Positions 20,453 to 20,995 of a stretch of DNA of 64,000 nucleotides are shown here, in pieces. Position 1 is the stretch's first letter, and each line of letters starts with the position of its first letter. Location of the stretch: the IMG/VR virus record IMGVR_UViG_2718218139_000007, one strand, 5' to 3'. Below the pieces are notes generated by a model. The model was not told where the DNA came from, did no database searches, and saw nothing but the letters and a program-made list of their open reading frames with translations. The position numbers were made by a program, and so were the translations under genes. The DNA is from a virus (taxonomy: Duplodnaviria; Heunggongvirae; Uroviricota; Caudoviricetes).

Positions 20453-20995
20453 ATGAAGCTCATTCTTGCGACGCGTAATTATTATCTGGAATATGGTTTG
20501 CGTTTGTTACTGAAAGGATGCCGTGTAATTCTGGCTCAAGAATTTTTTATGCCGGAGAATCGCAGGGTTATTCTGGATAGTAAAGAATCCTGGTTAATAA
20601 TCTGTGATAGTCAGTTGGGCCATTTAATGCGCAGCATGTTTCAGGGACGCCGTTTTATTCAGCTGGATCTGGAAGCGTTGAAAGGGGGACATGATATACA
20701 TAATGCTGTGCGTAACAGATTGTGGACCTGGAACAAAAAAGCACGGGCACTGACGATGTCAGAGATGGTGGTGATGTTTGGATATATCTACCGTCAGTTG
20801 CGTCCGTTCCATCTCGCCAGTGAGATGAGGGTAAACATAAAAACAGTTAACACTTTCCTGTATTCAGGGCTGGCGAAAAATGGGCTCAAAAGAAGTAGTG
20901 TAAGGTTGCTGGCAATTTCTGAGAACAAGCGAATAGGGCATTATTCCGGAGCAGGACAGGGTAATCACGCAGGTGGTGATACTGGATGCGGATAA
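20453..20995 (+). CDS. LuxR/GerE-type HTH regulator candidate with repeat-derived 3' end
   Basis: C-terminal region resembles a LuxR-type HTH (LTMSEMVVMFG…VNIKTVNTFLYSGLAKNGL); last ~20 codons read into a duplicated fragment of the tfa-like gene. Confidence 0.45.
   Translation: MKLILATRNYYLEYGLRLLLKGCRVILAQEFFMPENRRVILDSKESWLIICDSQLGHLMRSMFQGRRFIQLDLEALKGGHDIHNAVRNRLWTWNKKARALTMSEMVVMFGYIYRQLRPFHLASEMRVNIKTVNTFLYSGLAKNGLKRSSVRLLAISENKRIGHYSGAGQGNHAGGDTGCG

Follow-up and report, generated by a model that had tools for sequence, protein, structure and literature searches.

The open reading frame (ORF) described here starts with ATG, encodes 180 amino acids (aa) and is found at 20453..20995 on the plus strand in the ORF list of a stretch of viral DNA of 64,000 nucleotides (nt) (Duplodnaviria; Heunggongvirae; Uroviricota; Caudoviricetes; IMG/VR record IMGVR_UViG_2718218139_000007), which is referred to below as the window. 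Its product is an uncharacterised member of the already known ORF-156/phrog_6585 family with a chimeric C-terminal tail, and at the level of remote homology and predicted fold it is most likely a LuxR-type helix-turn-helix (HTH) protein. Only the variable, non-conserved tail was exchanged; the conserved core and the entire predicted DNA-binding domain are intact. The gene is a new, uncharacterised orphan LuxR-type regulator-like item of prophage cargo, of a kind that is already known. A preliminary description, made from the sequence alone, had noticed the composite 3' end of the ORF; this observation is confirmed, and its interpretation is supported in part.

Family membership and distribution

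A tblastn search of phage records identified as relatives the proteins ORF-156A/C/D/E of the P-Eib phages (GenBank AF151091, AF151674-6) and unnamed proteins of other Escherichia coli phages, with 60-68% identity over residues 1-154/157. In PHROGs the protein matches phrog_6585, a family of unknown function, with an E-value of 4.4e-91, residues 1-155 aligning with profile positions 1-155 of 156. The location of the ORF, in the cargo slot 3' of the tail-fibre genes of lambdoid prophages, is also typical of the family. The C-terminus is not: instead of ending at 156-160 aa near L153 or with a family-type tail, the protein has 180 residues, the last 19 of which (162-180) derive from tail-fibre DNA.

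Relatives form 39 clusters among 5.8 billion proteins; all are labelled 'hypothetical', none carries a Pfam domain, and the named ones are all from E. coli. An exhaustive HMMER profile search of 1.84 billion representatives delivered 37 sequences, many of them fragments, and found the family itself only, with no bridge to LuxR proteins. In GTDB, with one genome per species, two loci were found, one on an Escherichia sp. contig and one on a contig of 601 bp labelled Xanthomonas pisi (NZ_JPLE01000137.1). The latter encodes a fragment 75% identical to the prophage protein, its DNA being 89% identical to nt 68-243 of the ORF, and is most likely assembly contamination. The family is therefore described as small, unnamed, essentially confined to Escherichia and prophage-borne. 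Because divergent members, compared in pairs, show ratios of non-synonymous to synonymous substitution rates (dN/dS) of 0.10-0.27 wherever dS can be estimated, the members are, as far as their sequences tell, real protein-coding genes under purifying selection. An alignment of 30 members contains 32 invariant columns, 18 of which fall within residues 100-143, in the HTH. No publication on the ORF-156/phrog_6585 family was found in the literature, including searches for Eib with LuxR and for LuxR regulators of enterohaemorrhagic E. coli (EHEC) prophages.

Tail-fibre repeat and chimeric C-terminus

The 3' end of the ORF lies in a direct repeat of 127 nt, 20093-20219 against 20937-21063, whose copies are 91% identical (repeat search, family D1). 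Repeat search and alignment place the first copy (20093..20219, plus strand) inside an intact tail-fibre C-terminal-domain gene (19963..20233, plus strand), which is annotated with 89 aa in near-identical genomes and has a coding sequence (CDS) at the matching position in the near-identical locus L001. This gene is the donor type of the repeated DNA. The preliminary description had called the repeat tfa, a name that has to be replaced: donor ORF and remnant match only Pfam PF06820, Phage_fiber_C (E 3e-36 for the donor), and the RefSeq name in locus L001, 'phage tail fiber C-terminal domain-containing protein', agrees. The second copy belongs to a remnant of a tail-fibre C gene that is broken at both ends (20937..21067, plus strand). 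By blastn within the window it corresponds to nt 131-262 of the 318-nt unit 19963-20280; it matches positions 30-58 of the 64 positions of Phage_fiber_C, carries the label of an incomplete pseudogene in RefSeq genomes, and is a recombination scar. A 63-nt repeat probe matches the window three times, where chance would give 0, and the third match (62444-62506) falls in a second prophage, within its tail-fibre gene.

In the alignment the similarity starts sharply at about 20936/20937. This edge falls within codon 162, so that codons 162-180 and the TAA stop (20936..20995, plus strand; GHYSGAGQGNHAGGDTGCG*) are tail-fibre DNA, read in a frame other than that of the tail-fibre gene. The earlier statement that the last ~20 codons and the stop lie in the duplicated fragment is thereby made exact, at 19 codons plus TAA. 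At the crossover the native 3' sequence of the homologue P0003, CAGCACTATCCCATCGCAGCA, resembles the tail-fibre sequence TGGCATTATCCCGGAGCAGGA, which suggests, but does not prove, that the joint in codon 162 was guided by microhomology.

Family conservation stops at L153, and window residues 156-160 mark the end of most of the 30 aligned members; what was lost at the junction after residue 161 is therefore a non-conserved tail only. The closest non-identical relatives (66-68% identity, 175-193 aa) have tails of 14-32 residues that are mutually dissimilar. In the domain-only model the last HTH helix comprises residues 148-157 and ends before the junction, and in the full-length AlphaFold2 model the predicted local distance difference test score (pLDDT) is below 50 for residues 147-180. 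That the native 3' end was replaced, as the preliminary description put it, is literally true, but overstates the damage, since profile positions 1-155 of 156 are matched and the junction lies behind the last HTH helix. According to the model, the 19 swapped-in residues would effectively form a Gly-rich appendage, predicted to be disordered, behind a complete core. With the conserved core and all of the HTH domain preserved, the chimera probably keeps the activity of the family. The C-terminal scar is harmless-looking, an ordinary mosaic joint rather than a surprise.

Predicted domains

Residues 95-160 (20735..20932, plus strand) are predicted to form a complete four-helix HTH domain of the LuxR/GerE type, on the basis of hhalign, a PDB profile search, a domain model and Foldseek. 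The assignment fails curated thresholds and is backed by profile-profile alignment and AlphaFold models. For the 180-aa protein neither Pfam nor NCBIfam gave a match at E<=1, PADLOC gave none, the curated hidden Markov model of GerE (PF00196) was not matched, and a single-protein phmmer search of the PDB returned a spurious kinase match only. When the 30 family members were scanned one by one against Pfam, all matches were sub-threshold: RcsC ABL in 5/30, Sigma70_r4_2 in 2/30 (E 0.019) and GerE in 1/30 (E 0.056). The family profile, searched against PDB sequences, delivered four hits only, GerE and three LuxR-family regulators, with E-values of 0.2-1 over the HTH. An hhalign comparison of the family alignment with an HTH alignment of GerE, DctR and GadE gave a probability of 91.2% (E 1e-6; 41 columns, in register); the reference alignment is shallow, the GerE database search having contributed near-identical GerE orthologues only.

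The AlphaFold2 models place C-terminal helices at residues 102-114, 118-125, 129-142 and 148-157, a predicted bundle in which helices 2 and 3 make up the HTH and the fourth helix lies C-terminal to it. The full-length model (block-mean pLDDT about 72-87 over residues 1-140) consists of a four-stranded alpha/beta N-terminal domain and the four C-terminal helices, and in a Foldseek comparison with the PDB ranks 1-44 are all of the NarL/FixJ type (FixJ, RcsB, StyR, EvgA, LiaR, DosR, VraR, NarL, VpsT). The isolated C-terminal domain model reaches TM-scores (template modelling scores) of 0.6-0.69 to the DosR C-terminal domain, GerE, EvgA and RcsB, with sigma region 4 about equal; in these domain alignments the identity is 24-33% to GerE, DosR, EvgA and VqmA versus 14-20% to sigma region-4 domains. 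In the recognition helix, KTVNTFLY, residues K130, T131, V132, F135, L136 and Y137 are invariant and N133 is nearly so. The preliminary description had read a LuxR/GerE-like HTH into the protein. That reading finds support in the profile-profile comparison and the predicted structure and none in Pfam or NCBIfam; an HTH_LuxR domain is formally undetected by Pfam and recovered by the more sensitive tests.

For residues 1-94 (20453..20734, plus strand) a truncated alpha/beta domain resembling a receiver (a pseudo-receiver) is predicted. Its invariant residues include D52, after strand 3, and T7 and N9, at the place of the acidic pair of receivers. The phosphorylation pocket is incomplete, with no acidic pair and no clear modelled strand 5 with Lys, these positions being read from predicted secondary structure and not from a structural alignment. 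Pfam Response_reg was matched neither by the 180-aa protein nor by the 30 family members. No kinase gene was found nearby: the neighbours in the window are the tail-fibre gene, the tail-fibre remnant, an nleG remnant and nleA, and the neighbourhoods of the homologues are alike. Because the acidic pair is replaced by T7/N9 and no kinase gene lies nearby, the protein modelled here is probably an orphan, phosphorylation-independent combination of a pseudo-receiver and a LuxR-type HTH.

Genomic context and spread

The ATG of the ORF lies 220 nt 3' of the stop of the tail-fibre gene 19963-20233. Just past that stop an intrinsic terminator, a hairpin with a T-run (20247..20275, plus strand; RNA fold -21.2 kcal/mol, z -4.5; equal stability in 0/200 shuffles), parts the late operon from the cargo region. 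As tail-fibre gene and terminator precede it, the ORF opens the cargo region and is its first gene, at the right end of a lambdoid prophage; with the terminator upstream, its expression needs an own promoter or read-through. The same hairpin recurs after a second tail-fibre remnant, at ~24530-24556. About 30 nt 3' of the terminator are also common to both places (20276-20305 and 24557-24590).

Downstream follows a remnant of nleG (21125..21247, plus strand), which has the start codon and the first ~16 codons in common with the intact nleG of other strains. In O121:H19, chicken and bovine strains the intact nleG begins at the matching position, after the same module of ORF and tail-fibre scar, and the similarity of the window to these strains stops at about 21174-21179. 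The reduction of nleG to this remnant brings the gene next to nleA (21477..22799, minus strand), a 440-aa entry of the ORF list annotated as nleA in near-identical loci and convergent with the 180-aa ORF. The adjacency to nleA is thus due to the loss of most of nleG and is not conserved: near-identical copies of the gene with its tail-fibre fragment are followed by nleG/espJ, by nleG with nleA behind it, or by other genes and, at some distance, espM2. A link of the protein to nleA, to secretion or to acid resistance, as initially proposed, finds no support. More distant family members stand after eib adhesin genes or near perC or espG.

The cargo region of the window is a chain of cassettes with tail-fibre 3' remnants between them. 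The second tail-fibre C remnant (24443..24563, plus strand), identified by blastn within the window, by its sequence and as a RefSeq pseudogene in locus L001, comprises nt 200-318 with stop and terminator and lies directly 5' of nleH1-2 (nleH1-2/nleF). It marks another cassette joint, and the chimeric end of the ORF is one of several scars left by recombination at prophage right ends.

Of 5426 complete E. coli genomes, 114 contain the whole of a query spanning the junction (20800-21070); in the other matching genomes, for the rows sampled, the match is confined to the tail-fibre half. Among the matches listed in this sample of E. coli genomes no near-identical allele with another 3' end was seen. 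More than 2000 contigs, among them those of O55:H7 CB9615 and phage 2B8, carry 180-aa sequences of the same 90% cluster, and the exact protein is present in public collections.

A further ORF of 44 codons (20344..20478, plus strand) lies upstream and shares 26 nt with the beginning of the main ORF. A counterpart is called ahead of P0003, a 66%-identical homologue, and is open on three independent contigs (L009 3892-4026, L010 1270-1404, L011 879-1013). Because the identity between the window and P0003 versions is only ~45% in amino acids (counted by hand), compared with roughly 70% in nt (by eye), it is judged from these sequences to be probably non-coding leader DNA. Its frame and stop are nevertheless preserved between the two versions.

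Proposed function and alternative readings

As the best explanation of the whole we regard it as reasonably probable that the gene is a phrog_6585 cargo regulator of NarL/FixJ-like design, whose tail was swapped by recombination and whose activity was probably kept. The ORF would be a cargo ('moron') gene in the slot 3' of the tail-fibre genes of a lambdoid prophage. Its product would be a small orphan regulator-like protein, in which a truncated receiver-like N-terminal domain, probably phosphorylation-independent, is combined with a LuxR/GerE-type four-helix HTH, the overall design being that of the NarL/FixJ class. It would most likely act as a dimer that binds DNA sequence-specifically through the near-invariant recognition helix KTVNTFLY, and would thereby alter how a target shared by the whole family is transcribed; the shared recognition helix and the varied neighbours point to such a common target rather than to the adjacent gene. 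The tail swap would go back to a recombination, illegitimate or guided by microhomology, between the right ends of two prophages, by which codon 161 was fused to mid-gene sequence of another phage's tail-fibre C gene and only the variable tail of the family gave way to 19 out-of-frame, Gly-rich, disordered residues. Gene and scar would then have spread as one module ahead of different effector cassettes.

Several observations weigh against this explanation. The annotation pipeline of RefSeq, PGAP, labels the locus as 'incomplete' pseudogene fragments, annotating only codons 33-82 of the intact 180-codon ORF (L001 6300-6449, L015 5300-5449, L018 3458-3607, L019 3459-3608), although the full CDS is annotated in GenBank submissions and in phage 2B8, so that the annotation is inconsistent. 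A promoter scan upstream of the ATG found no candidate site, and the ORF stands behind a strong terminator. Most copies in phage records are deletion remnants: 155/174 records cover <80% of the protein, and many Stx2a-converting phages contain internally deleted remnants of this gene family only. The chromosomal copy in O157 is likewise reduced; in E. coli O157:H7 Xuzhou21 (L014 3246-3506) nt 62-243 of the ORF, at 94% identity, are joined to nt 361-434, at 73%, and a 62-aa hypothetical protein is annotated.

These points would fit a decaying pseudogene, inactivated by the fusion to tail-fibre DNA or by loss of its promoter or native tail, with the frame still open only through recent spread of the module. 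Sampled allele variation is in line with this: seven alleles (window, human isolate, O121:H19, chicken isolate, bovine isolate, Stx1a phage and phage 2B8) are 99.3-99.8% identical and differ at 6 sites, 3 synonymous and 3 non-synonymous. The window allele carries S119F in the HTH region, which is present in none of the other six, and the surrounding cargo region is rich in remnants of nleG, integrase and tail-fibre genes. Decay is nevertheless unlikely, though far from negligible. All seven alleles, from unrelated backgrounds, keep the intact 180-codon frame, and the cluster found on thousands of contigs consists of intact 180-aa sequences. Core and HTH are undamaged and match the family profile end to end, and position 119 is variable across the family.

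Alternatively, the protein might act mainly through contacts with other proteins rather than as an autonomous DNA-binding regulator, forming heterodimers with NarL/FixJ-type regulators of the host (such as RcsB or GadE) as an auxiliary partner or decoy and so redirecting or titrating them. The target choice of RcsB is modulated by auxiliary partners (PMC3950696). A short pseudo-receiver with a LuxR-type HTH and no kinase gene nearby is the design of the E. coli RcsB auxiliary regulators; the best fold matches include RcsB and EvgA, and a weak, non-significant N-terminal alignment with GadE is in register with D52. Beyond the generic HTH, however, no sequence-level relationship to GadE, DctR or RcsB was found, and the near-invariance of the recognition helix argues that DNA contact matters; a mainly auxiliary role is regarded as very unlikely.

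Cross-hits between sigma region 4 and LuxR HTH domains are expected, since their structures are related. That the C-terminal domain is instead a module like sigma-70 region 4, or another helical bundle, and the protein no member of the LuxR family, is extremely unlikely: the best Foldseek hits of the isolated domain do include region 4 of extracytoplasmic function sigma factors (3hug, 6dv9), two family members have the weak Sigma70_r4_2 match and the GerE threshold is not reached, but the fold ranks of the full-length model are exclusively receiver-plus-LuxR proteins, the domain identities favour GerE, DosR, EvgA and VqmA, and both the hhalign result and the top four PDB profile hits are of the LuxR/GerE type.

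Comparison with known systems

ORF-156 of the Eib prophages shows clear homology to the window protein and occupies the same slot at the lambdoid right end, 3' of the tail-fibre genes. It differs in having 156-157 aa and in standing after the eib gene, which encodes a YadA-like adhesin, and before a small ORF, whereas the window gene follows directly on the tail-fibre terminator and precedes cassettes of type III secretion system (T3SS) effectors. The window protein has about 24 extra residues, 19 of them from the tail-fibre remnant.

With the NarL/FixJ regulators (RcsB, EvgA, DosR, FixJ, NarL) the protein shares the predicted succession of a receiver-like alpha/beta domain and a four-helix HTH, and an Asp (D52) after strand 3, like the phospho-acceptor of receivers. 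Unlike them it has an N-terminal domain of ~94 residues only, T7/N9 in place of the acidic pair and no kinase gene nearby, and its family is confined to mobile elements of Escherichia. GerE represents the minimal HTH, with which the family HTH aligns in register. GadE and DctR (YhiF), orphan LuxR-type regulators of the E. coli acid fitness island, are of similar length (175-176 aa against 156-180 aa) and consist of a degenerate N-terminal domain followed by a LuxR HTH. Their HTH segments are part of the alignment that matches the family at 91% probability, while direct single comparisons are not significant (hhalign of the family against GadE alone, E 0.082, probability 0.7%; against DctR, E 0.52), and a specific relationship to either was dropped.

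The prophage regulators so far known to accompany effector loci resemble either AraC (Psr, PatE) or PerC (PMC10877973). PsrA, PsrB and PatE, prophage-encoded regulators of the GAD/type III secretion circuit, are of the AraC/XylS type and not LuxR-like (PMC10877973), and an identity of the window protein with PsrA or PsrB was rejected. Like Psr, PatE and Pch (PerC), the window gene encodes a small regulator-like protein as prophage cargo beside T3SS effector genes (PMC10877973), and one phrog_6585 homologue adjoins a PerC-family gene; unlike them, its product has no AraC- or PerC-type Pfam match and is unrelated to both.

If the family consists of working regulators, pathogenic E. coli would have, besides Pch and Psr, a third prophage-borne regulator family that accompanies adhesin and effector cargo. 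The family might have escaped notice because the sampled O157:H7 copies are deletion remnants only and because neither the curated domain libraries nor RefSeq recognise it. The remnants in O157:H7 and Stx2a phages may thus explain why it is unstudied in the reference EHEC strains. A wider proposal, which we consider decidedly unlikely, is that the phrog_6585 proteins are an unrecognised prophage-borne class of phosphorylation-independent LuxR-type regulators, beside Pch and Psr, that would plug lambdoid prophages into a common host circuit, for example by pairing with RcsB/GadE-type regulators, and control either virulence cargo (Eib adhesins, T3SS effectors) or stress genes of the host; in that case the chimeric 180-aa form would be an active allele spread with effector cassettes in non-O157 EHEC and enteropathogenic E. 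coli. The useful, if modest, lead is the phrog_6585 family and not the chimera, whose C-terminus is in itself minor, a scar showing that cargo cassettes are stitched at tail-fibre 3' ends. Of practical concern is that RefSeq splits an intact and widespread 180-codon ORF into pseudogene fragments.

Other features of the window

A truncated integrase remnant (23455-24195, minus strand) adjoins the second tail-fibre C remnant. Upstream of the tail-fibre C gene, at 17067-19962 on the plus strand, a 708-aa ORF resembles by eye the C-terminal part of the tail-tip protein J and is overlapped in another frame by an ORF of 290 aa that contains collagen-like GXY repeats (families D2-D4 of the repeat search). 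In the near-identical strain 2013C-3264 the matching tail-fibre N-terminal gene is annotated as frameshifted. The tail-fibre region of the first prophage of the window may be defective.

The second prophage extends from about 32782 to 62626. An ORF at 32782-34068 on the minus strand is of the size of an integrase and was assigned by size and position only. The prophage has its own tail-fibre C gene with terminator (62329-62626), 92% identical to that of the first. The two prophages of the window supply substrates for the type of recombination that forms such scars.
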